Positions 32,241-64,000 of a DNA stretch of 64,000 bases are shown here, one piece after another. The position numbers and the translations under genes are program-made. The notes below the pieces were generated by a model. The model made no database searches and was not told where the DNA came from. It worked only from the letters and a program-made list of their open reading frames with translations. This DNA comes from Deltaproteobacteria bacterium (GTDB lineage Bacteria; Desulfobacterota; JAJRXV01). The number at the start of each line of letters is the position of its first letter. Positions within the stretch are counted from its first letter, which is position 1. The stretch is taken from NCBI GenBank assembly GCA_024275075.1, contig JAJRZU010000043.1, positions 6,696-70,695 on the forward strand. The letters are read 5' to 3'.

Positions 32241-33200
32241 ATGGTTCTGACTAACAAAAAGCTCTGCCTTTTAATTCTAAATTTATTGATTTTGTCGTGT
32301 TTGTTAATTCTTGCCAATAAATGTCATGCATTAAACGTTGTCTCTACAAAGCTTTTGTTTGAGTTGACGGGCAGTCCAAAAGGAAAATTTGATCAACCTA
32401 CTGCTGTTACATTAGGTAAAGGTGGACGTATCTATGTCATGGATGGCGTCAACAACAGGGTTGTCTATTTTAATAATAATGGTAAATTCTTAAAAGAATT
32501 TGGTGGGGAGGGGTTTGCCGAAGGGCGTTTCTTCTTCCCGCTTGGTATCAAAACGGACGCTGAGGGGAATGTATATGTAGCTGACTCGAAAAACGGCAGG
32601 ATCCAGGTATTTACATATAGTGGTGAATATATAAGAAGTTTCAACTTAGAGAAGATCCAAAAGGGGTTCCAGGCAGACCCTACCGATATCGCCATAAATG
32701 ATAAAATCAATAAGTGCTACATCGTAGATAACGATAATCACAGGATATTAGTTTACAACAAGCAAGGTGAGTACCTGACGAGATTTGGTAGTATGGGGTT
32801 CATAGAGGGTGACTATTTCCGCTACCCGTATAAGGTCGATCTTGACAGCGAAGGCAATGTTTACGTTTTAGAGGTGATTAACACAAGGGTTCAGGTTTTT
32901 GATAAGGATTTGAACTATAAGTACTCGATAGCTGAGTGGGGGCTGGATAAAGGGCAGTTTTTCAGACCCCAGGGGCTTGTGATCGACAATGAGGACAGAG
33001 TCTTCATCGCTGATAACTATACCGGTGTCATACAGGTCTTATCCAAATCAAGTAAGTTTATTGCGGTATTAGGTGATGAAAACGGTGAAATATTAAGGCT
33101 TGATACGCCATGCGGTATGTATATCGATGAAGATAACCGGTTATTTGTTACTCAGATGTTAAAGAACGTTGTATCAGTATATCAACTACAATGGCAATAA
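32241..33200 (+). CDS. NHL-repeat beta-propeller protein (secreted)
   Basis: Signal peptide. Six repeats of the G(R/N)IYV(M/A)D..N.R(V/I)..F type, characteristic of NHL propellers. Confidence 0.7.
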   Translation: MVLTNKKLCLLILNLLILSCLLILANKCHALNVVSTKLLFELTGSPKGKFDQPTAVTLGKGGRIYVMDGVNNRVVYFNNNGKFLKEFGGEGFAEGRFFFPLGIKTDAEGNVYVADSKNGRIQVFTYSGEYIRSFNLEKIQKGFQADPTDIAINDKINKCYIVDNDNHRILVYNKQGEYLTRFGSMGFIEGDYFRYPYKVDLDSEGNVYVLEVINTRVQVFDKDLNYKYSIAEWGLDKGQFFRPQGLVIDNEDRVFIADNYTGVIQVLSKSSKFIAVLGDENGEILRLDTPCGMYIDEDNRLFVTQMLKNVVSVYQLQWQ

Positions 33201-33201
33201 T

Positions 33202-36200
33202 ATGAAAAAGTTTTTTTTTATATTACTCTTTATTTTATTCTTTTGCTCATTTATATGCCTTAAAAGCTCTTTTGCTTACGATAAAGAGAAGGCAAAGATG
33301 TTAAGGGATGAGACAAAAGAGTGTGCTATATGTCATTATGAGTTTATCCCCCAGATATGGGTAGGTAACGGTACCGAACTGGTTGAATATGTTCCCGGCA
33401 GGTTTGTCGGGGACGAACGCGTTTGCTACGGATGTCATAATGGCGGCGTCGCTGATTCCAGGTGGCGTGCATGGTCGATGCAAAGGCACCCGCTAAAAAA
33501 ACCTTCTGACAAAATCAAGATTACAAAGGAATTCCCCTTAAATGACAAGGGTGAGATGTATTGCGGGACATGTCACACCGCTCACGGCGTGGATACGGAC
33601 GCATCCGTTGAGATGGAGCGAACGATATTCCTAAGATACTCAAACAACAATTCTGAGATGTGCATGAGCTGCCACACAAACCAGGCCAAGGGGAAGGAGG
33701 GCGGCAGCCACCCTGTAAATGTATCAACGATCAAATTACCTGAGAAGCTGTCTCATATTGGTGGCTTTACCGGGGATGAACCGAATAAAGTGATCTGTCA
33801 AAGCTGTCACAGCCCGCACGGGACAAGTGAGAAAAAACTGCTGGTCGCCCCGATAAAAAATGCCGAACTATGCGTTCTGTGCCATTATGATAAGGACGCG
33901 AAAACGAGAAAAGAAGCGGCTCGCAAAGGCACGCACCCGGTAAACATCGCGTCAGACACGGTGAAGATATCAGAGAAGTTGAGAAAATTAGGTAGTCGAA
34001 CCGGTACGAAGGGCAGGATAAATTGTCTTTCATGCCACACCGTTCATGATGGCATCAAGGGAAACAAACTTGTTTTAAAAAGAAACTCTGACTCTTCGTT
34101 CTGCCTTGAGTGCCATGAGAAGCAGGAATCGGTATTAGACTCAAAGCATGACCTGCGGGTTACCGCACCGAATGAGCGAAACAAGCTAAAGCAATCACCA
34201 AAGCGCTCCGGGCCTTGCAGCGCCTGCCATATCCCTCATAAAGCCGCCGCGGCGAAGATATGGGCAAAGGAGATCGACACCCGCGGCGAAGCGATAGAGG
34301 AGCTTTGTAAAACCTGTCATGAAAAAGGGGCATGTGCCGAAAAGAAGCAGGTCGGCTTAAATTCGCACCCGGTGGGGATACCGCTTGCCAGGGTAGGCGG
34401 GAGCAGATCGGCTCTGCCGACGTTTGATGAAAATGGCGTAAAAACTATAGTCGATACGAATGTCACCTGCTCCACATGCCATAACGTTCATCAGTGGGAC
34501 CCCCGCAATAAAGTGGTAAAGGGTGACAAGGACATTGACGGTAACTATACAAACAGTTTCTTACGGATAAGGAACCTGTTTGGACTGAGGCTTTGTACTG
34601 ATTGCCATAAGGACCAGGAGTTTATTTTCAGGACTGAACATGACCTGACAGTAACCGCTCCTTTAGAGAAGAACATCCTCGGGCAGACTCCCGCTGAGTC
34701 AGGGCCGTGCGGTGTGTGTCATACCGTCCACAACGCGTTAAGCAAGAACAAGCTCTGGGCGCGACAGTTAGGTGACGCCGATGACGCTGTCTCCATGTTC
34801 TGCTTCAGCTGCCATGAGGAGGGCAGGGTCGCACAAAAGAAGCTTACCGGTGAACATTCCCACCCTGTGATGGCCGACATAAAGCGGGCGGATGGATCGA
34901 CAACGCTCCCTTTGTATATGATAAACAGTAAAAAGGACCCTGAAAAGGGTAAGGTTACCTGTGCAAGCTGCCATAATCTTCACCAATGGGACCCCGAGAT
35001 CAAGGGGCAGGGACCCGGGGAGAATACCGAAGGCGATGTTACAAACAGTTTCTTACGGATAAGGAACGATGCGGATTCCGCTCTTTGTAATGATTGCCAT
35101 GAGGGGAAATATCTGATAGAGGACACCGACCACGACATGGCGGTGACCGCTCCGGACGAGAAGAACCTGCTCGGGCAGACAGTAGCCGAAACAGGGGTAT
35201 GCGGCGCCTGTCACACTATTCATAACGGTGTCTCCTCATTCAAGCTCTGGGTAAAAAAACTCGGCGGCACCGAGCTTGATGATTGTATATCAAGGCTCTG
35301 CTTTAGCTGTCATGACAGGCAGCGTGTCGCACAAAAGAAGCTGGTCGGGGAGAATTCCCACCCAGTGAACGCCGATATAAAGAAAGCGGACGGCTCGACA
35401 GACCTGCCATTATTCAACAAGGAGGGGCGCATCCCGAAAGAAGGCGAGGAGGGCAGGGTCTTTTGTTCCACCTGCCACAACCTGCACCAATGGGACCCGA
35501 CGAAGAAGGAGAAAGGACCAGGGGAGCCTGTGGAGGGTGATATCTCAAACAGCTTCCTGCGCCTGCCGAATGACGCCGGCTCTACGCTGTGCAAAAACTG
35601 CCATGACGGTAAAGACCTCGTTGAGGGGACTGACCATGACATGGCGGTAACGGCGCCCGGGGAGAAAAACATTGTTGGGGAGACCGTGGAGAAGACCGGC
35701 GCGTGCGGCGCGTGTCATATCGTCCATAACGGTGTCTCAACGTATAAACTGTGGGGTAAGGAGTTAGGCGGCGACGAGGATACAGATGGTATTTCGCGGC
35801 TATGCTTCAGCTGTCACGAGGAAGGCAGGGTGGCGCACAAGAAGCAGGTCGGTAAGAATTCCCACCCCGTTGGCGTCGATATCTCGACCGTAGGCGGTGA
35901 GACAGACCTGCCGCTCTTTGATGAAAAAGGTAAAAAAATTGACGGTAATGGCAATGGAAAGGGCAAAGTGTTCTGCTCCACCCGCCACAACCTGCACCAG
36001 TGGGATCCGCTCATAGATGATTATGGCTCCAATGAAAACCTTGAGGGCAACCGCACCAACAGCTTTTTGCGCCTGCCGAATGACGCCGGCTCCACGCTGT
36101 GCAAAAACTGTCACAAGGGTAAGGAATATGTGGAGGGGACAGAGCATGACCTTTCGGTAACCGCGCCGGCCGCAGAGAACGCTATCGGCGAGACAGTCGA

Positions 36201-37203
36201 TGTCGCAGGCGTTTGCAGCGCATGTCACCTTGTCCATAATGGATACGCGTCCGCGTTTTTATGGGCGCGAGTACCGGGCGTGGGGGAGGACAAAGTATCA
36301 AGGTTGTGCACAAGCTGCCACTTAGAGGGACGTGTCGCGCAGAAAAAGACATTAAATGAGAACTCGCATCCGGTTAACGTGCTGATCAGCAGGGCGGACG
36401 GCAGCACCGATTTCCCGCTTTATAATGATATGGGGAAGAAAGACCCTGAAGGCAGGGTGTTTTGCAGCTCTTGTCACAATGTTCATCAATGGAATCCGTC
36501 TAAAGTGGATTATGGGCCAAGGATCAACATTGAAGGAACGCCCCAGACAAGCTTCCTGCGCGCGCCCGGCCTTGACCTGTGTATTAATTGCCACGAAGGG
36601 AAAGATTATATTATCGATACAGAGCATGACCTGAGCGTCACCGCACCCGAAGAGAAGAATCTCCTTGGCAGGACTGTCGCCGAGGACGGCGTTTGCAGCG
36701 CGTGTCACATTATCCATAATGGTGTCAACAAACCGCTCCTGTGGGCGCGTCTTTTCGGGCCGCCGTTCATCAGGGACTGGCAGACGAAATTCGGGGCGGA
36801 AGAGGACCCTGTGGTTCAGGCTTGCACAAGCTGCCATTCTGAAAAAAACATCGCCGAGAAGAAACAGCCGATAGTCGGGCTGCACCCGCGCGGTATTTTT
36901 GTCGGGATAAAACCACTGCCGTTCATCTCCAAGGGAGAGCCGATTCCACCACTATATGATGTGCACGGCGCGAGGATAAAAACAGGGAACTTAGTCTGCC
37001 CTACATGCCACAATCTGCACCAGTGGAGCGGTAGAAAGAAGAAGAAGGGGCCGGGCAAGAACATCGAGGGCAATGCGAACAACAGTTTTTTAAGGAGTGG
37101 AGTCTCTTTCGGCTTATGTCCTGACTGCCACTCATTTGACGGATTGTTCCGGTTCAAGTATTATCATGTACCAAGGATGAGAAACAGAAAATCGAAGAAA
37201 TAG
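33202..37203 (+). CDS. Giant repetitive multiheme cytochrome c (about 31 CxxCH motifs)
   Basis: The ORF frame opens at 33169, but ATG 33202 (MKKFFFILLF signal peptide) follows the NHL stop. The C-terminal two thirds consists of about 5.5 tandem units of roughly 165 aa, each with 4 CxxCH, with 80-90 % nucleotide identity between units. Confidence 0.8.
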   Translation: MKKFFFILLFILFFCSFICLKSSFAYDKEKAKMLRDETKECAICHYEFIPQIWVGNGTELVEYVPGRFVGDERVCYGCHNGGVADSRWRAWSMQRHPLKKPSDKIKITKEFPLNDKGEMYCGTCHTAHGVDTDASVEMERTIFLRYSNNNSEMCMSCHTNQAKGKEGGSHPVNVSTIKLPEKLSHIGGFTGDEPNKVICQSCHSPHGTSEKKLLVAPIKNAELCVLCHYDKDAKTRKEAARKGTHPVNIASDTVKISEKLRKLGSRTGTKGRINCLSCHTVHDGIKGNKLVLKRNSDSSFCLECHEKQESVLDSKHDLRVTAPNERNKLKQSPKRSGPCSACHIPHKAAAAKIWAKEIDTRGEAIEELCKTCHEKGACAEKKQVGLNSHPVGIPLARVGGSRSALPTFDENGVKTIVDTNVTCSTCHNVHQWDPRNKVVKGDKDIDGNYTNSFLRIRNLFGLRLCTDCHKDQEFIFRTEHDLTVTAPLEKNILGQTPAESGPCGVCHTVHNALSKNKLWARQLGDADDAVSMFCFSCHEEGRVAQKKLTGEHSHPVMADIKRADGSTTLPLYMINSKKDPEKGKVTCASCHNLHQWDPEIKGQGPGENTEGDVTNSFLRIRNDADSALCNDCHEGKYLIEDTDHDMAVTAPDEKNLLGQTVAETGVCGACHTIHNGVSSFKLWVKKLGGTELDDCISRLCFSCHDRQRVAQKKLVGENSHPVNADIKKADGSTDLPLFNKEGRIPKEGEEGRVFCSTCHNLHQWDPTKKEKGPGEPVEGDISNSFLRLPNDAGSTLCKNCHDGKDLVEGTDHDMAVTAPGEKNIVGETVEKTGACGACHIVHNGVSTYKLWGKELGGDEDTDGISRLCFSCHEEGRVAHKKQVGKNSHPVGVDISTVGGETDLPLFDEKGKKIDGNGNGKGKVFCSTRHNLHQWDPLIDDYGSNENLEGNRTNSFLRLPNDAGSTLCKNCHKGKEYVEGTEHDLSVTAPAAENAIGETVDVAGVCSACHLVHNGYASAFLWARVPGVGEDKVSRLCTSCHLEGRVAQKKTLNENSHPVNVLISRADGSTDFPLYNDMGKKDPEGRVFCSSCHNVHQWNPSKVDYGPRINIEGTPQTSFLRAPGLDLCINCHEGKDYIIDTEHDLSVTAPEEKNLLGRTVAEDGVCSACHIIHNGVNKPLLWARLFGPPFIRDWQTKFGAEEDPVVQACTSCHSEKNIAEKKQPIVGLHPRGIFVGIKPLPFISKGEPIPPLYDVHGARIKTGNLVCPTCHNLHQWSGRKKKKGPGKNIEGNANNSFLRSGVSFGLCPDCHSFDGLFRFKYYHVPRMRNRKSKK
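34549..37140 (+). repeat. Intragenic tandem repeat array (about 500-nt period) inside the giant cytochrome gene
   Basis: Unit landmarks (N)SFLR(I/L)(R/P)N at about 34549, 35041, 35548, 36058, 36550 and 37085. For example, 35545-35610 versus 36055-36120 are nearly identical. Confidence 0.6.
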
Positions 37204-37927: not shown

Positions 37928-38704
37928 TCATCCCACCAATAAGGCATGGTTATAAACTTCGTTAAGACCTTTAAGGATCAGAGAGTAGTCACAGGTATCG
38001 ATGACATTTTTCAGATCGTCCCGCAAAGCGGGTAATGCCCCGCCTGTCGCGATGACTTTGACGTCCTCGCCTATCTCGTCTTTCATGCGTGATACGATGT
38101 GCGTCACCAACCCCGCGAACCCGTTGAATATGCCGCTTTGCATCGCAAGGGAAGTATCCTGCCCGATGACTTTTTCCGGCGCCCGAAGCTCGATCACCGG
38201 TAATTTACTTGTATTGCGATACAAGGCCTCGACGCAGATGTTTATCCCCGGCGCTATCACCCCGCCCAAAAACTCGCCCGCTTTGTTGATATAATCAAAG
38301 GTGATCGCCGTACCAAAATCGATCACGATGACGCCGCCTTTTATGGTATGATGAGCGGCGCACGCGTTGACGAGCCTGTCCGCCCCTACCTCGCGGGGAG
38401 AACGCACCATGACCTTGATATCAGGAATGGATTGTAGCCCCGCAAAAAACGGGTGCGCGTCGAACATCCTTGTCATAAGCTTTTTGTATGCCGCGTCAAG
38501 TTCGGGCACTACTGATACAATGATGACATCCTTTATCCCGCTCTTGTTCACGCCCTTACACACCAGCATCTTGTCTATGACAGCCTCATGCTCCTTCGCC
38601 TTGTGCGCCTTGTTGGTGGGGAACCGGAAATCCGCGATGACCCTGCCGCCGCTGATAATACCCGCGAATACTGTACTGTTACCGATATCGACTGCCAGAA
38701 GCAT
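37928..38704 (-). CDS. coaX: Type III pantothenate kinase
   Basis: 258 aa with MLLAVDIGNST and the GADRL motif of CoaX. Confidence 0.85.
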   Translation of the reverse strand: MLLAVDIGNSTVFAGIISGGRVIADFRFPTNKAHKAKEHEAVIDKMLVCKGVNKSGIKDVIIVSVVPELDAAYKKLMTRMFDAHPFFAGLQSIPDIKVMVRSPREVGADRLVNACAAHHTIKGGVIVIDFGTAITFDYINKAGEFLGGVIAPGINICVEALYRNTSKLPVIELRAPEKVIGQDTSLAMQSGIFNGFAGLVTHIVSRMKDEIGEDVKVIATGGALPALRDDLKNVIDTCDYSLILKGLNEVYNHALLVG

Positions 38705-39670
38705 CTACTTGACCCCGCTTATCGTACCTGAAAATACTTTTCGGATTCCACTGTCTGAGCGCAAAATCAGGAAGCCGTTCTCGTCGATCCCTTAGGCGAC
38801 GCCCGTTACCTCGTCGGCGATCGTCTTAACGGTGACTACCCTGTTCAAGAGGAGGCAATAGCTGTTCCATTCCCCCCGTATTTTTTCAAAACCCTCTTTT
38901 GTCAATATTATATACATTTTTTCAAGATTTAAAATGATTTTCTCAAAAAGGCTCCGCTTCGAGATCTTTGCGCCGCACTCATGCCTTAGTGTGGTAGCGG
39001 CAGCTATGAGCTCCTTCGGGAAGTCATCGGGCTGCGAGTTCACGTTGACGCCGATACCGGTGATAATAAAATCGATAGCGTCGGACTCGCTTTTCATCTG
39101 TGTCAGGATGCCGCATACCTTTTTGCCGCCGATGTAGATGTCGTTAGGCCACTTGATACCGGGTTTCAGGCCGGTGACCTCCATGATCGCCTGTGCGACG
39201 GCTATCGCGCTCATCACCGTTACCCTTGGTGCGAATGACGGGAGCATCTTCGGCTTCAGTATGACAGAGAAGTACAGGTTCTCGCTTGACGCCGAGACCC
39301 ACTCCCTGCCCATCCTGCCCCTGCCTTTTGTCTGCCTGTCGCTGATGACGACTGCGCCCTCACCGCCGCCGCTTTGCGCCAGCCTGTACGCTTCATCGTT
39401 GGTGGAGCCGATAGTATTGTAGTGGATGATGTTACCGCCAAGCAGGTGACCGGTGAGGCTTTTCCCCACCGCGGCGAAATCGATGCAGTTAAGGTCATCG
39501 ACCAGCTTATAACCGTACGACCTCATCGATATGATGTTATAGCCCTGTGATCTCAGGATGTTGATGCGCTTATGCACGGCGTTCCTCGTGATGCGTAGCT
39601 CACCGGCTATCTTCTGGCCGGACAGATAATCTTTATTATTCTTTAGAAGTGTAAGGATGCTATCTTTCAA
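38705..39670 (-). pseudogene. birA: Biotin-protein ligase / biotin operon repressor BirA interrupted by an in-frame TAA at 38792-38794
   Basis: N-terminal HTH and a catalytic domain with GRGRMGREW. ORF 38792..39670 stops before the C-terminal SH3-like domain. The same frame continues ...TGVA*GIDENGFLILRSDSGIRKVFSGTISGVK to TAG at 38705, matching the BirA C-terminal domain. Confidence 0.65.
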
Positions 39671-39688
39671 GGGGTTCGCCTGGTTTTC

Positions 39689-40522
39689 TTATTCGATCAA
39701 TAATGAGATATCAACAGCGCGTGCGGAATGAGTGAGCGCCCCGACGGAGATAAAATCCGGTGACCGCTTCGCGTAATCAGCGACATTCTCCATGGTGACG
39801 CCACCAGATACTTCGGTGACAGCTTTCCCCCCCACGATCGCCAGCGCCTCCTTTACTGTATCAGGCGGCATATTGTCAAGCATGATGATGTCCGCGCCGG
39901 CGGTAATAGCCTCCCGCACCTGTGCGAGACTCTTCACCTCGACCTCAATCTTGACGTAGTTCATGCGATGCTTCTTCGCTTCAAAAACGGCTTTCGCAAC
40001 GCCGCCGCAATATTTTACATGGTTGTCCTTTATCAGGATGCCGTCATAAAGCCCGAAACGGTGGTTGTAGCCGCCACCGGCGATCACCGCCTCCTTCTCC
40101 ATGTACCTCAGGTTCGGCGTCGTTTTGCGCGTGTCATATATCTTCACGCCAGAACCCTTTACCGCTTCCACATACCTTCTCGTCATGGTGGCGATGCCGC
40201 ATAAACGCGCAAGGAAGTTCAAGGCGACCCTCTCGCCGGCCAAAATGTTTCGCAACCCGCCGTCTAATGTGATTATCGTATCGCCGCTCCTCACACTGTC
40301 ACCGTCATTGAAAAACGTCCGAATCCTTATGTCAGGGTCAATAATCTCAAAGACGCGCGCGGCGACTAAAGATCCCGCTAATATGAAATCTTCCTTGGCC
40401 GATATGTGAGCCGTCGCGTCCGCGCTTTCATCGATGAGGATGTCAGACGTAATATCGCCCTGTCTGATATCCTCTTCCAGCGCCTGTTTTATTACAGTAT
40501 CAAGGGCTAATCGCGTGACCAA
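39689..40522 (-). CDS. nadC: Nicotinate-nucleotide pyrophosphorylase (quinolinate phosphoribosyltransferase)
   Basis: 277-aa QPRT fold. C-terminal TIM barrel with the GADIIMLDNM motif. Confidence 0.85.
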   Translation of the reverse strand: MVTRLALDTVIKQALEEDIRQGDITSDILIDESADATAHISAKEDFILAGSLVAARVFEIIDPDIRIRTFFNDGDSVRSGDTIITLDGGLRNILAGERVALNFLARLCGIATMTRRYVEAVKGSGVKIYDTRKTTPNLRYMEKEAVIAGGGYNHRFGLYDGILIKDNHVKYCGGVAKAVFEAKKHRMNYVKIEVEVKSLAQVREAITAGADIIMLDNMPPDTVKEALAIVGGKAVTEVSGGVTMENVADYAKRSPDFISVGALTHSARAVDISLLIE

Positions 40523-40526
40523 TTCG

Positions 40527-43172
<2,646 letters not shown>

Positions 43173-52398: not shown

Positions 52399-53565
52399 TT
52401 ATTTTTCTTGAGCCCTGTTCAGCTGAATCTTAGTCACAAGCTGTCTGAATGATTCCTTCAGGCTGCTGATAGAGTTTCCATAGTCTTTGATATTATTATA
52501 TGATTTAGCCAGATAATAGTGCACTCTGGGCATATTCTTATTAAGCTCCAAAGCTCTTTGGAATTCGATTATAGCCTCTTCATCCTGACCCTTTGCCTGC
52601 AAAAGGATACCCTTCGCCTCTAAACATGTCAGGAAGTTTGAGTCAAGCTCTAACGCCCTCTTGATCGCGGCATCCGCTTCTGGGAACTTCCCCATCTTTG
52701 CGTAAACCCTGACCAGGCCGCATTGTGCAAACAAATTCTCCTCGCTACGTTTCAATGCCCTGGTAAAAGCGTCCGCTGCATTCTCCAAGTGCTTCGCCTT
52801 CTTACTCTTTGACCTCACCCGCAAATACTCATCTTCATACAACTCCCCAAGCAGGACAAGCGGCAGGTCATAGTTTTCATCAAGTTTTGCGGATTTTTCA
52901 AGCTCCCTGACCGCCTTTATGCCCATGCCGCGCTCGATCAGCTTCCTGCCAAGACCGTAATGGAGCTTTGCGGCTTTCAATATCTTCGGCCCCTCATCCT
53001 TAACCATCTCCAGATCTTTTTCTGGTTCCCTTAACCCAAGCATAACCTCGATATCGATCTTCATATCCAGGCGGGCGCTTGTCGGATAACCATCATATAT
53101 CTTTTTTATCGCACCGGCGCCATCTAATATAATAGTTGATGGAACAGCGATAACGCCATACTCGTAAAACGTCGAAAGGCCTGAATCCAGCAAAAGCTTA
53201 AAATCCACGTTAAATGTCTCTTTCATCTCCGCCATTTTCGCTAATTCTTCTGGTGTCGGCTCCTCCTTCTCCACATTGACAGCGATAACTTCAACGCCCT
53301 TGTCAAGATAATCCTGCCTCAGCTTCACCAAATCCTCTAACTCCTCGCTTGACCGCGGGCTCCACGTCGCCCAAAACAAGAGAACGATTACTTTATTCTC
53401 ACCAATATAATCATCCAAAGAAACTGTGCTCTCACTGTCAAGCTCCTTCAAGCTAAACTTTGGTGCGTCTTCTCCTAATTTCACGTTTTTAAATGCTGCG
53501 ACAGAGCTTCCGTACGTCACCAAAGACGCGAGAAATAACACAATGCTTATGATCTTCTTCATCAC
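52399..53565 (-). CDS. Secreted thioredoxin-fold (TlpA/redoxin-like) protein with C-terminal TPR repeats; active site is SxxS rather than CxxC
   Basis: Signal peptide, then LLFWATWSPRSSEE where TlpA/ResA have WATWCPPCR. The codons are AGC and TCA, so this is not a single sequencing slip. C-terminal 180 aa are TPR. Confidence 0.55.
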   Translation of the reverse strand: MMKKIISIVLFLASLVTYGSSVAAFKNVKLGEDAPKFSLKELDSESTVSLDDYIGENKVIVLLFWATWSPRSSEELEDLVKLRQDYLDKGVEVIAVNVEKEEPTPEELAKMAEMKETFNVDFKLLLDSGLSTFYEYGVIAVPSTIILDGAGAIKKIYDGYPTSARLDMKIDIEVMLGLREPEKDLEMVKDEGPKILKAAKLHYGLGRKLIERGMGIKAVRELEKSAKLDENYDLPLVLLGELYEDEYLRVRSKSKKAKHLENAADAFTRALKRSEENLFAQCGLVRVYAKMGKFPEADAAIKRALELDSNFLTCLEAKGILLQAKGQDEEAIIEFQRALELNKNMPRVHYYLAKSYNNIKDYGNSISSLKESFRQLVTKIQLNRAQEK

Positions 53566-61028: not shown

Positions 61029-63926
61029 CTATTTTATTGTGATGACCTTTGAGGCAGGGCTTTTGTCGATAAACGATATCAGCTCGGCGTATACCGCGTC
61101 TTTGGTGAGTATACGTCTGTTCCCGACCAATATCAATTTCTTGCATGCTCTTGTAATCGTTACGTTTAGTTTCCGGTTCAAGGCGTCGTTCTCTTCGAGG
61201 AATTTCAGGCCGCCTGCGTCACCGACAACGAAAGATGTGATGATGATATCACGCTCGGAGCCCTGGAACCGCTCGACCGTATCGACGAGTATCCCGTTAT
61301 CTTTGTTAAACGGCTCTATCATCCTTCTAATAAGAGCGCACTGAGCCTTGAAGGGCGATATGACACCGATGCCTGAACCGGTAATATTCTCACTGACAAG
61401 TCCGCTCACTATCTTCGCGACAAGCTCGGCTTCTGCTTTGTTCTCCCTTAGCTCGCTTGAGCCCTGAACATCTATGAAGACGACCGGTGCGTCAGGGTCT
61501 AATATATCATACAGCTCATTTGACTGGTTGACGGTTATCTTGCCGGTTGCGACGCTCTCGTGAGTCTTGAGTATACCGCCATAAAATTTCCCGCTGGGAA
61601 AGCGGATAATCTCCTCGTTCATCCTGTACTGAGTATCGAGCGACCCGCACGGGTTGTTGTCATCCTCGATGTCATCGCGGGTGGAATTAAACTCCCAGAG
61701 CCGCTGGAACAGTGTCTTGTCAAGGCCTGTAACGCCGGGGATGACGCTCTTCTCTTCGTCAGGCATTGCGCAGTCTGACCGGATGACCGGTCCGAGCTGG
61801 TGCAGATCCCCCACCATGATGAACTTACCGGCCTTTGTGAGAGCGGCCAAAACAATCGGTTCGGGTATCTGGCTCGCTTCATCGATGACCGCGGCGTCAA
61901 AGTTTATGCCGTCAAATATAAACGATACGGAAACCGAGGCGGTAGTCGCCGCGATCACCCCCGCCGCCGCTATCTCCTTCTTCAGCCCGCGTATCTGTTC
62001 GACGGTGTAGTTCGCGGCTTTTACCGACAAAAGATGATTGTGCAGCCGCGGATCGACCCTGGCCACGCCACCTACCCGCAGGAAATCGTCAAAGCCATGA
62101 TCCTGGATCAACCGCAAAAGGACATTATCGACCGCGCGGTTGGTGAGGGCGGACAATATGACGCGCTGCTTCCGCTTTACAAGCTCTGTTATGATGGCGG
62201 CGATGGTCTTTGTCTTGCCGGTACCGGGGGGGCCCTGCAAGAGGTAGTAATCCTTGCTGCAAACGCTCTTTATGACAGCGCTTCTTTGCGCCGGGTTCAG
62301 GTCGGAATCCGTCTTGTCATATACCAGATTGATATTGTCGAATTCCGGGCGCCGGTTTAGCAGTATCAGGTCTTTGAACCGGCCTGGGCTCTTCGCGAAA
62401 TTATACAGCCCGTCTAACATAGTATCCGCCACCATCGTGCTGTTAAAGATGCTCAACGTCCATTTCACGTTTTTGTCAAGCTCGTTTGCAAATGCGTTCC
62501 ATAACCTGACGTTGACGGAGTTTTTTTGCAGGCTGATAACTTCGCCCCGAAGAAGCGGTTCTTTTTGCGGGCTACCGCAGTACAAGGCTATCGGATCGCC
62601 GCCCCTTATCTCGGACGGGTTGTCACCGAACTGTAAGGTGACTACCCCTTCATCGCTGTTATAATCGGTGACCGTGAGATCGGTCATCTTATATTTCACT
62701 TCGTTTTCGCTGTCCCACAGTCTGGCGTTCCTTCCCGCCGCGACAGCTCTCTCACGCTCCGCCATCTTATAAAACGAGAAGTAGTAACTCCTTTGCTCAT
62801 CGGTCAGGTCATCAAATATCCGGTAGATATTTTTGCACTTATCCTTTAAATATGACGGACATTTATTACAGCGCGTCAGGTCTCGCCTGAACGAGAGCAT
62901 CGTCTCATAGTCGAAATCGGTGTAGCGCTTCTCATAAAACACCATCTTGTTGCGCAAGAAGATGAAATCACGTTTAAGCGCGGCCGGTATGCGCAGGCTC
63001 CGCTGAACGTCTTTTGAGCCGGAGTATAAGACGATATTGCGGGCAGGGGCGTCATTACCGGCGGCATCACCATAAACGGAGTCGAAGATGAAATTGTACG
63101 CGATCACCTGAAACTTGTGATTTATCCATGCCTCGTTCTTCCCGTCGGGTGATCTGCCGGTCTTCAGCTCAATGATGCTCGATGCTGTGCCGTCTGATGA
63201 TTTGAACAGGATGTCCATCCTGCCCAGTAGCCCGTATTTGGGCGAGATGTAGTAAGGTTCGATGAATTTGGCGCAATCTTTGAAATTACTGTTTAAGCGC
63301 CAGTTTGTCAGTGCCCCCATATCCTTCCTGATATCATCTTTTATATTCTTCAGCTTTGGTACATAATCCGTTTTGATGAACTTTATCTTCTCTTTGCCTA
63401 TATGCTTCTCGAACGAGGCGTTGAAATCAAACCCATCGATATCCATAAGGAAATCATCAAATACATTCCCGACGACAATACCTTTTATCACATAATAATT
63501 GATGACCTTCTGGATCTTCATCCGATTTTGGTGGTACTTGAAAAAACAGTAATGATCGTTCCTTATCGCTACCGAAGCCATCTTTGTGGCGTCGATAAGG
63601 ATTGACGGCTCTAAGATTATATAGCTCATCGCGTTAGAATCCAATACGTTAACGGTCTTCGTCTCATCGAAATCGCGTGATTTGGCGCGGATGACGTTGA
63701 CGTTGTCACCTTCGGTGAGGTAATGAGAAAGACCCCGCCACTTCCCCCACAGATTAGCTTTATAAGTCTCTTCCCCCGCGCGCAGTTCCAGAGCGCAGAT
63801 ATCGATTTGGGAGTTGTTCTTAGCGGTTACTTTCGCGTCTTTTGTTATAGAGATGATCTTTGCGTTAAAGATATCGACGCTCGCGATATCATCTTTGAAC
63901 TGTTTTATATTGACGAAACTTTTCAT
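61029..63926 (-). CDS. Dna2-like nuclease-helicase: N-terminal RecB/Cas4-type PD-(D/E)xK nuclease with Cys cluster, fused to SF1B (Upf1/Dna2-like) helicase
   Basis: Nuclease motifs GRMDILF...IIELKTG...QVIAYNF and CNKCPSYLKDKC. Helicase motifs GPPGTGKT (I), VIDEASQ (II), VGDLHQLGPV and VERFQGSERDIIITS (VI). Confidence 0.7.
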   Translation of the reverse strand: MKSFVNIKQFKDDIASVDIFNAKIISITKDAKVTAKNNSQIDICALELRAGEETYKANLWGKWRGLSHYLTEGDNVNVIRAKSRDFDETKTVNVLDSNAMSYIILEPSILIDATKMASVAIRNDHYCFFKYHQNRMKIQKVINYYVIKGIVVGNVFDDFLMDIDGFDFNASFEKHIGKEKIKFIKTDYVPKLKNIKDDIRKDMGALTNWRLNSNFKDCAKFIEPYYISPKYGLLGRMDILFKSSDGTASSIIELKTGRSPDGKNEAWINHKFQVIAYNFIFDSVYGDAAGNDAPARNIVLYSGSKDVQRSLRIPAALKRDFIFLRNKMVFYEKRYTDFDYETMLSFRRDLTRCNKCPSYLKDKCKNIYRIFDDLTDEQRSYYFSFYKMAERERAVAAGRNARLWDSENEVKYKMTDLTVTDYNSDEGVVTLQFGDNPSEIRGGDPIALYCGSPQKEPLLRGEVISLQKNSVNVRLWNAFANELDKNVKWTLSIFNSTMVADTMLDGLYNFAKSPGRFKDLILLNRRPEFDNINLVYDKTDSDLNPAQRSAVIKSVCSKDYYLLQGPPGTGKTKTIAAIITELVKRKQRVILSALTNRAVDNVLLRLIQDHGFDDFLRVGGVARVDPRLHNHLLSVKAANYTVEQIRGLKKEIAAAGVIAATTASVSVSFIFDGINFDAAVIDEASQIPEPIVLAALTKAGKFIMVGDLHQLGPVIRSDCAMPDEEKSVIPGVTGLDKTLFQRLWEFNSTRDDIEDDNNPCGSLDTQYRMNEEIIRFPSGKFYGGILKTHESVATGKITVNQSNELYDILDPDAPVVFIDVQGSSELRENKAEAELVAKIVSGLVSENITGSGIGVISPFKAQCALIRRMIEPFNKDNGILVDTVERFQGSERDIIITSFVVGDAGGLKFLEENDALNRKLNVTITRACKKLILVGNRRILTKDAVYAELISFIDKSPASKVITIK

Positions 63927-64000
63927 TACTGGTAATAATATTATAAAAGCGCTTATAAAGCAACAGGCGTGCCTGTTTTTATTCTGCGTACCTGTTTTCC

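Follow-up and report, generated by a model that had tools for sequence, protein, structure and literature searches.

The gene considered here raises the question of whether a bacterial nuclease-helicase fusion serves in defence or in the maintenance of the host's own DNA. It lies at the end of a 64,000-nt stretch of DNA (the window) from Deltaproteobacteria bacterium (contig JAJRZU010000043.1), and a preliminary description, made from the sequence alone, had taken its product for a stand-alone Dna2-like nuclease-helicase and possibly an Nhi-like anti-phage or anti-plasmid factor. The likeness to Dna2 was correctly seen and even understated, since the protein has the full Dna2 architecture including an OB domain; the Nhi-like defence role found no support. 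The protein is best explained as a bona fide canonical (archaeal/eukaryotic-type) Dna2, encoded by a native, monocistronic chromosomal gene of a deep-branching member of the Thermodesulfobacteriota and serving in housekeeping 5′-strand processing rather than defence, a reading to which a probability of roughly 0.7 is given. What was observed, and carries this reading, is the architecture of the protein, its intact catalytic and cluster-ligand residues, its homology to Dna2, the native composition of the gene, its synteny, and surroundings with no defence or mobile context.

Domain architecture and homology to Dna2

Mouse DNA2 was the best relative of solved structure when the single sequence was searched (phmmer E 8e-37); this match is driven by the helicase, and the nuclease motifs are collinear in a part of the alignment that is non-significant. 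With a 16-sequence family profile, positions 223-1103 align continuously to residues 116-1042 of mouse DNA2 (E 4.7e-104, 353 bits), and the best helicase-only profile match, IGHMBP2 (243 bits), lies ~110 bits below it. An AlphaFold2 model of the full-length protein, built from the same alignment as the profile, reached a mean predicted local distance difference test (pLDDT) of 85.5 and a predicted template-modelling (pTM) score of 0.85. The top three Foldseek matches of this model are Dna2 crystal structures, aligned over the full chain (E 8e-55, TM 0.70/0.65, ~1,080 columns), and the helicase-only matches Upf1, IGHMBP2, and Sen1 have a TMq of at most 0.49. In the model, the whole-chain fold match takes in the beta-barrel between nuclease and helicase, a region that the collinear profile alignment likewise pairs with the barrel of DNA2; Dna2 is the only match for the parts outside the helicase, namely OB fold, nuclease, and barrel. 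The protein almost certainly belongs to the Dna2 family.

In mouse DNA2 (5EAN/5EAW/5EAX) and archaeal Dna2, the order of helix, OB fold, iron-staple nuclease, barrel, and superfamily 1B (SF1B) helicase is identical to that of the window protein, and the eukaryotic and archaeal enzymes have the same catalytic motifs and the same layout of one upstream and three downstream cysteines. The structure-based identity to mouse Dna2 is only ~20-23%. The window protein is also shorter (965 residues vs. ~1,060 in mouse) and lacks the eukaryotic N-terminal extensions, and the distance from its nuclease to Walker A is 333 residues, compared with roughly 350-380 (by aligned positions) in mouse DNA2. The Dna2 helix that corresponds to the N-terminal helix alpha-1 reportedly contacts RPA; the bacterial host presumably uses SSB and not RPA, so that any partner contact via alpha-1 and the OB domain must then differ from that of Dna2. 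A Fen1/PCNA-type replication context was not seen at the window gene. Archaeal counterparts include Dna2 of Pyrococcus horikoshii (cited in PMC3914693) and the Asgard Dna2 homologs (PMC12680538).

The open reading frame (ORF), the nuclease motifs (D...ELK...QxxxY), and the complete SF1B helicase of the preliminary description were all recovered, with every motif present and conserved (Table 1). Conservation was read from a close-homolog alignment of the window protein with six homologs at 33-63% identity (7 sequences) and from a family alignment of 79 full-length ORFs taken from the loci of relatives. Across the family alignment, the nuclease residues D, K, Q, and Y are invariant (79/79), and E253 is replaced once, by D (E in 78). 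The close orthologs keep helicase motifs I, Ia, II, III, IV, V, and VI, and the sampled residues of these motifs are kept family-wide (79 members); besides the motifs in Table 1, QYRMN (residues 766-770) and TVERFQGSE (883-891) were located.

The cysteines are consistent with the Fe-S (iron-sulfur) type of cluster proposed earlier, but the spacing is C-x2-C-x7-C and not C-x2-C-x8-C, and the fourth ligand, C127, which completes the iron-staple, had been missed. Exactly four cysteines (C127, C353, C356, and C364) are invariant among the close sequences, and C127 shares a profile column with the cysteine of the mouse DNA2 motif "SIRC". This arrangement of one upstream and three downstream cysteines is known from AddB, Dna2, and Bad as the "iron-staple" (PMC7430649), and it suggests that the window protein may bind an Fe-S cluster. 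Of the N-terminal ~130 residues, formerly left unassigned, the first ~110 form an OB fold.

A Pfam scan, which listed 21 families at E ≤ 1, matched the Dna2 family PF08696 to residues 52-209 (score 26.6; gathering threshold 22.4). Among the families that the preliminary description had proposed for such a scan, AAA_11 and AAA_12 were found, and PDDEXK_1 and DUF4011 (PF13195) were absent at E ≤ 1, as was PF09848 (DUF2075). What reveals the nuclease is the Dna2 model of Pfam together with the motifs, the family profile, the structure, and a weak match to Cas4, which as such is a stand-alone CRISPR-associated nuclease of ~200 residues; this match (TIGR00372; 23 bits over residues 224-318, below the 65-bit cutoff) reflects a common nuclease-fold class alone.

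Table 1. Features of the window and of the loci compared with it (entries beginning with L are positions in other loci)
Feature	Position	Strand	Remarks
Dna2-type nuclease-helicase coding sequence	61029..63926	minus	965 residues plus stop, ATG start; ORF list and translation
Promoter-like element abutting the start codon	63927..63964	minus	TTGCTT, 17 nt, TATTAT; ATG 8 nt on; no Shine-Dalgarno sequence
N-terminal helix alpha-1 (residues 2-11)	63894..63923	minus	Model secondary structure, low pLDDT; FVNIxHFKDDI kept in orthologs
OB-fold domain (residues 14-105)	63612..63887	minus	Structure model (beta domain 15-105); OB fold separately confirmed
RecB/Cas4-type PD-(D/E)xK "iron-staple" nuclease domain (residues 113-400)	62727..63590	minus	
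C127, first putative Fe-S ligand, upstream of the nuclease core	63546..63548	minus	Invariant in 7 close sequences
Nuclease catalytic motifs D238, E253-L-K255, Q273xxxY277	63096..63215	minus	Invariant in 7 close sequences
C353-x2-C356-x7-C364, three C-terminal putative Fe-S ligands	62835..62870	minus	Invariant in close orthologs
Beta-barrel between nuclease and helicase (residues 413-493), then stalk helices (498-521)	62448..62690	minus	Model secondary structure
SF1B (Upf1/Dna2-type) helicase, RecA-like domains 1A and 2A (residues 541-955)	61062..62306	minus	Pfam AAA_11, AAA_12
Walker A GPPGTGKT (residues 565-572)	62211-62234	minus	
DEASQ (residues 682-686)	61869-61883	minus	
AhpC/TSA-Redoxin-TPR protein	52399-53565		
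valS and three ORFs sized as nadC, birA, coaX	37928-43172	minus	
1,344-residue ORF, multihaem c-type cytochrome	33169-37203	plus	
Divergent pair loci of orthologs	L001:5967-9935, L002:6569-9962, L083:526-2373		
True PLuB member P0012	L089:2608-6579		
Clade B dna2-like genes	L015:9548-12889, L060:9260-12637		
recJ upstream of the clade B gene	L015:7846-9558		
WYL-WCX regulators of Saprospiraceae loci	L060:8073-9059, L061:8054-9052, L065:8051-9037, L079:607-1860		

Members of the family are rare. A scan of 185,579 species-representative genomes returned 216 relatives, only one of them close (a fragment of a "Deltaproteobacteria" metagenome-assembled genome (MAG), 61% identity), and the non-helicase half (residues 1-530) found 523 relatives at E ≤ 1e-3, three of them at E ≤ 1e-30, among 1.84 billion representative proteins. 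The 79 full-length ORFs fall into two clades, defined by an alignment-independent search for the Cys motif and by a neighbour-joining tree with midpoint rooting, which agreed. Clade A (11 of the 79) is comprised of the window clade, one member each from Spirochaetia and Sericytochromatia, and members from Halobacteriales, Bathyarchaeia, and a Heimdallarchaeum. All have a single cysteine at the place equivalent to C127 and a CxxCxnC motif at that of C353-C364 (x5 in the Heimdallarchaeum), mostly without a long N-terminal extension. The other 68, forming clade B, come from Bacteroidota, Kapaibacteria, Ignavibacteria, and other groups, are ~1,100 residues long with ~140 extra N-terminal residues, and lack the Fe-S cysteines (CxxCxnC in 0 of the 66 scorable members).

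By these features, the window protein belongs to the archaeal-type Dna2 clade that has the Fe-S cysteines. The archaeal members of clade A have neighbours of DNA metabolism: the Lhr helicase gene adjoins the gene in Haloquadratum and lies one gene further off in a second Halobacteriales locus (L013, where Lhr was assigned by clustering with a scanned Lhr protein), the Bathyarchaeia gene has same-strand Lhr, UvrD, and Rad50/SMC-like neighbours, and the Heimdallarchaeum gene adjoins a gene for an RFC/Rad17-like AAA+ protein.

Start codon, locus, and host lineage

The ORF of 965 codons is uninterrupted, and its frame stays open up to the window edge. The ATG at 63926 is taken as the real start because six orthologs (953-963 residues) all begin at the MxxFVNI motif that aligns there (N-termini MKSFVNIK, MRNFVNIK, or MQNFVNIK) and because DNA conservation in the three aligned orthologous upstream regions is lost beyond ~40 nt. 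The public gene call P0001, 100% identical to the window protein, has 1,004 residues; its start is probably mis-annotated, being 39 codons too far upstream and crossing the promoter-like element. This element is the only conserved stretch (~38-45 nt) in the upstream alignment, in orthologs that share merely 55-60% protein identity, and together with the absent Shine-Dalgarno sequence it possibly points to a transcript that is leaderless or nearly so. Window positions 63962-63985 (plus strand), close upstream of the Dna2 start on the minus strand, contain a terminator-like element, made up of a perfect hairpin of 6 bp, AACAGGCGTGCCTGTT, and a T-run after it. The palindrome ACAGGC..GCCTGT (63962-63977) was considered as an SOS or other operator and was dropped, as it is not conserved in the orthologous loci.

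Neighbouring genes were called by a crude longest-ORF method. Downstream of the Dna2 gene lie a PilJ/HAMP chemoreceptor gene with its own promoter-like site, an S-adenosylmethionine (SAM)-dependent methyltransferase gene, and genes of unknown function, followed farther on by genes for a MobA-like transferase, a DUF190 protein, truA, the AhpC/TSA-Redoxin-TPR protein, and phoU; valS, pyruvate carboxylase B, phoR, and an Opp-like binding protein gene are found elsewhere in the window. The chemoreceptor and the methyltransferase had been named in the preliminary description, but the DsbA-like gene that it placed beside them was not found nearby, the gene for the AhpC/TSA protein being the nearest of thioredoxin fold. 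Its view that the contig ends ~70 nt upstream of the gene applied to the window alone, since the identical protein and the window ValS are on record from an 82,748-nt NCBI contig. The window is ordinary housekeeping chromosome. The composition of the Dna2 gene is native (GC content 0.489, third-position GC content 0.630, codon-usage distance 0.129 vs. a window mean of 0.207).

In three orthologs (55-60% identity, on independent metagenomic contigs), a divergently oriented gene for a PatA_N-TPR-DnaJ protein (~600 residues; a shorter call of 344-378 residues in L002) occupies position -1, and in two of the three a gene for a 700-residue protein, in which a receiver domain with PatA_N behind it occurs twice, stands at -2. 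The downstream genes vary among these loci (TamB, a carbonic-anhydrase-like gene, or the contig end). The prediction is that the window's contig carries the PatA_N-DnaJ pair immediately past position 64000. The gene is read as native because the window is housekeeping chromosome, its composition is native, and the divergent neighbour and the promoter-like segment are conserved.

The three nearest relatives of the window ValS are 80, 78, and 75% identical to it, and the one at 75% carries the label Thermodesulfobacteriota; all other Desulfobacterota reach at most 62%, which suggests that the host belongs to a sparsely sampled, deep Thermodesulfobacteriota lineage related to sulfate reducers. 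The order valS-nadC-birA-coaX, common to the window and the two closest metagenomic relatives (L086 and L087), helps to tie the window to this lineage. The two metagenomes that supplied the nearest ValS genes also yielded two of the Dna2-like orthologs.

Related nuclease-helicases and competing explanations

The only biochemically characterised bacterial DNA2-like enzyme is Bad of Geobacillus stearothermophilus, an Fe-S cluster-containing single-stranded DNA (ssDNA) endonuclease, 5′-3′ translocase, and helicase with a preference for 5′ flaps, which is rare, sporadic, and of unknown cellular role (PMC7430649). It has 1,245 residues, its nuclease residue D150 and Walker-A residue K815 are 665 residues apart, and it contains a central domain absent from eukaryotic DNA2 (PMC7430649). 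Like the window protein, Bad is a bacterial iron-staple nuclease fused N-terminally to an SF1B helicase. The window protein is nevertheless closer to canonical Dna2, because its 333 residues from D238 to K571, all of them remainder of the nuclease, barrel, and stalk, align wholly to DNA2 without the central insert of Bad. The N-terminal OB domain is a further difference from Bad as that enzyme is described.

By analogy with Dna2 and Bad, the enzyme would load on single-stranded DNA with a free 5′ end or flap. It would thread this strand past its OB domain and through the PD-(D/E)xK nuclease with its Fe-S staple, and the SF1B motor behind the nuclease would translocate 5′→3′ and feed or position the strand for an endonucleolytic cut, the Fe-S cluster having a structural role. 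Candidate tasks are double-strand-break end resection, the processing of stalled forks, and the removal of long flaps. Fe-S binding, substrate, polarity, and physiological pathway are all what we infer from these relatives, and a role of the protein in repair or replication, outside defence, is considered probable.

Nhi (SERP2475 of Staphylococcus epidermidis) is a protein of 606 residues with a DUF2075/PF09848 core and an HsdR-like PD-(D/E)xK N-terminus (bioRxiv 10.1101/776245). It has a glyoxalase-like C-terminal domain and is a bipolar helicase, with no Fe-S cluster mentioned; many copies are plasmid-borne or near defence genes, and DNA2 is listed among the remote structural homologs of its helicase part (bioRxiv 10.1101/776245). 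It resembles the window protein in joining a PD-(D/E)xK nuclease and an SF1-type helicase in a single polypeptide. The two differ in size (606 vs. 965 residues) and in nuclease, which in the window protein is of the Cas4/RecB/Dna2 type with four conserved cysteines, and neither the PF09848 core and the glyoxalase-like C-terminus of Nhi nor its location on plasmids or near defence genes was found for the window protein.

The best-scoring named bacterial family is NF040671, "PLuB system helicase-like protein" (342 bits, residues 147-951 on profile positions 389-1246), but this 1,256-position profile has a cutoff of 999 bits, three times that score. P0012, a true PLuB member, reaches 1,526 bits and covers the profile from end to end (positions 1-1256). 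It shares with the window protein ELK/QxxxY, an upstream Cys and a downstream Cys cluster, and the SF1B core, and differs in its C-x4-C-x6-C spacing and in ~300 extra N-terminal residues, which by eye look protein-kinase-like. PLuB is a sister family and itself an iron-staple nuclease-helicase. Eight genes without a Pfam match surround P0012, and a literature search on "PLuB" returned nothing relevant.

Against this background, it is unlikely that the window protein is a single-gene anti-phage or anti-plasmid nuclease-helicase akin to Nhi, Hna, or a PLuB component, which would sense the replication intermediates of phages or SSB-coated ssDNA and degrade the DNA of the invader. Such a role would fit the patchy and rare distribution of the family across bacteria, the likeness of the helicase core to MkoA, MkoC, DpdJ, Hhe, and ProA, the position of PLuB as nearest named NCBIfam entry with a true member amid unknown genes, and the fact that the evidence on the window neighbourhood stops at 64000, the upstream flank lying outside. 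The PADLOC matches of the window protein, though, cover the generic helicase core (MkoA, MkoC, DpdJ, Hhe, GajB, and others) or, weakly, the Cas4 nuclease core, and like the NCBIfam defence matches they stay far under the family cutoffs; the DUF2075 core of Nhi is absent, and size and nuclease type differ. PADLOC detected no defence system in the surroundings of the window gene or in the set of 46 genes that flank all bacterial clade A loci; matches of neighbours to BrxL, mad2/mad8, dCTPase, IetA, TRIP13, and HerA were rejected as generic-fold matches of Lon, methyltransferase, deaminase, and AAA+ proteins. Synteny, the promoter-like segment, and the native composition speak against a mobile island. 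A distant (26%) full-length relative occurs on 2 of 72,556 plasmid records, which counts in favour of defence, but among 50,697 phage records there was no full-length homolog, six of them matching only in the C-terminal part of the helicase, and the IMG/VR viral contigs contained no relative, so that the protein is essentially absent from plasmids, phages, and viral contigs.

A different function would follow if the gene formed a module with the divergent PatA_N-TPR-DnaJ and double response-regulator-PatA_N genes, coupling the activity or expression of Dna2 to a phosphorelay or a chaperone pathway, for example in stress- or development-triggered DNA processing. The recurrence of these genes at -1 and -2 and the short intergenic region with its conserved element are in keeping with such a module, which is nonetheless judged very unlikely: divergent adjacency in fairly close relatives may be plain inherited synteny, the conserved DNA is restricted to ~40 nt beside the Dna2 start codon, the distant clade A members (Spirochaetia, Sericytochromatia, and archaea) lack these neighbours, and the window's own upstream gene is outside the window. 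An RNA-directed, Upf1/IGHMBP2-like helicase-nuclease in RNA surveillance or processing is extremely unlikely. The helicase half does come near the IGHMBP2 model (TIGR00376, 291.8 bits vs. a cutoff of 348.9), but IGHMBP2-type matches span the ~530-residue helicase core only, the remaining domains have their match in Dna2, and the archaeal neighbours in the same clade are DNA repair and replication genes. Iron-staple RecB/Cas4 nucleases are known as DNA enzymes, which also counts against an RNA target.

Several points weigh against the canonical, housekeeping Dna2 reading. The rarity and patchiness of the family are also typical of accessory or defence genes, and the sister family PLuB sits among uncharacterised genes. 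Neither the window nor the closest bacterial ortholog loci have an adjacent replication or repair gene, the neighbours at bacterial loci being chemoreceptor, methyltransferase, and PatA_N/DnaJ/response-regulator genes, and the window's own neighbourhood could be read downstream only. The recJ linkage of 15 loci (see below) belongs to clade B only and bears on the window protein indirectly, and the same-sample co-occurrence of ValS and Dna2 is consistent with lineage-wide inheritance without proving a common genome. The x7 cysteine spacing differs from the x5 of the Heimdallarchaeum homolog and from that of eukaryotic Dna2, which is likewise x5. The authors of the Bad study considered bacterial DNA2-like proteins unlikely to be simple DNA2 orthologues, as RecBCD/AddAB and RNase H cover the roles (PMC7430649).

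As a sign of a housekeeping Dna2-like role, the preliminary description had named conservation throughout the lineage next to replication or repair genes. This pattern was found in substantial part, namely a fixed chromosomal position in diverged orthologs, co-occurrence in the lineage, and archaeal homologs beside replication and repair genes; it was not found at the bacterial loci, which no such gene adjoins, and the lineage evidence is same-sample co-occurrence.

A more far-reaching proposal is that an archaeal-type Dna2, OB domain and Fe-S cluster included, became stably domesticated in the lineage and now belongs to its core enzymes of genome maintenance, where it would take over 5′-end resection or flap processing from RecBCD/AddAB, RecJ-RecQ, or Pol I/RNase H and might be wired to the PatA_N-DnaJ/response-regulator genes; this is speculative and held to be rather unlikely. 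Dna2 has long been viewed as a eukaryotic and archaeal factor. If the proposal were true, the lineage would offer a natural bacterial system for canonical Dna2 without RPA and a documented case in which a replication/repair factor passed between domains, into a bacterial group that often figures in discussions as a syntrophic partner of the Asgard archaea. Sporadic bacterial DNA2-like proteins (PMC7430649) and archaeal and Asgard Dna2 (PMC3914693, PMC12680538) are already known, and the modest addition here is a canonical architecture, without the Bad insert, that is stably resident in a bacterial lineage. The window protein is a small and probably tractable model for the mechanism of Dna2 and a data point on the inter-domain exchange of genome-maintenance genes. 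Its case also indicates that domain composition alone is insufficient to annotate nuclease-helicase fusions as defence proteins, and that Nhi, PLuB, Bad, canonical Dna2, and the Fe-S-less clade B can be distinguished by simple tests.

The clade without Fe-S cysteines and other observations

Probably the more original lead is the large Bacteroidota/Kapaibacteria clade that lacks the Fe-S cysteines and often stands directly downstream of recJ. Clade B proteins (e.g., in L015 and L060; loci within L006-L082) have 27-30% identity to the window protein over nearly the full length, with the same order of OB, nuclease, barrel, and helicase; the 66 scored ORFs, and with them most bacterial relatives of the window protein, retain all catalytic residues of nuclease and helicase but none of the four Fe-S cysteines. 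This loss is unexpected, since Dna2, AddB, and Bad are considered to need the iron staple for their structural integrity.

A same-strand gene for RecJ (565-604 residues; DHH, DHHA1, RecJ_OB) precedes the dna2-like gene at 15 loci of clade B (L008, L015, L017, L019, L026, L037, L038, L039, L044, L048, L058, L059, L066, L070, and L075). It is the next gene upstream in 14 of them; in L048, whose target gene is broken up by the ORF caller, it is the second ORF upstream. Several of these loci, L015 among them, have overlapping or abutting ORFs. At nine of the 15, rsgA is found at position -2, and yebC is located downstream in six (at +1 in five). The recJ and dna2-like genes of clade B look like a repair operon, which would point to DNA repair as the function of this clade. 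The linkage was also considered as direct support for a repair role of the window gene and was downgraded, as all 15 loci are in the Fe-S-less clade.

Four Saprospiraceae loci of clade B carry a divergent gene for a WYL-WCX regulator at position -1. This class of regulator is known from the control of both DNA-damage responses and defence systems.

Clade B genes of "uncultured Hyphomicrobiales" MAGs cluster tightly with those of Kapaibacteria and Ignavibacteria and have the recJ/rsgA context in common with them, and two "archaeal" MAGs (L046 and L047) also fall in clade B. Judged from this clustering, the taxonomic labels of several MAGs look unreliable; by record title, the doubtful loci are L006-L010, L019, L037, L038, L059, and L062.

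In the window itself, the 1,344-residue ORF listed in Table 1 contains many doubled CXXCH motifs and represents a very large multihaem c-type cytochrome. It weakly resembles two decahaem families, GSU2203 and DmsE, and fits an extracellular-electron-transfer lifestyle.

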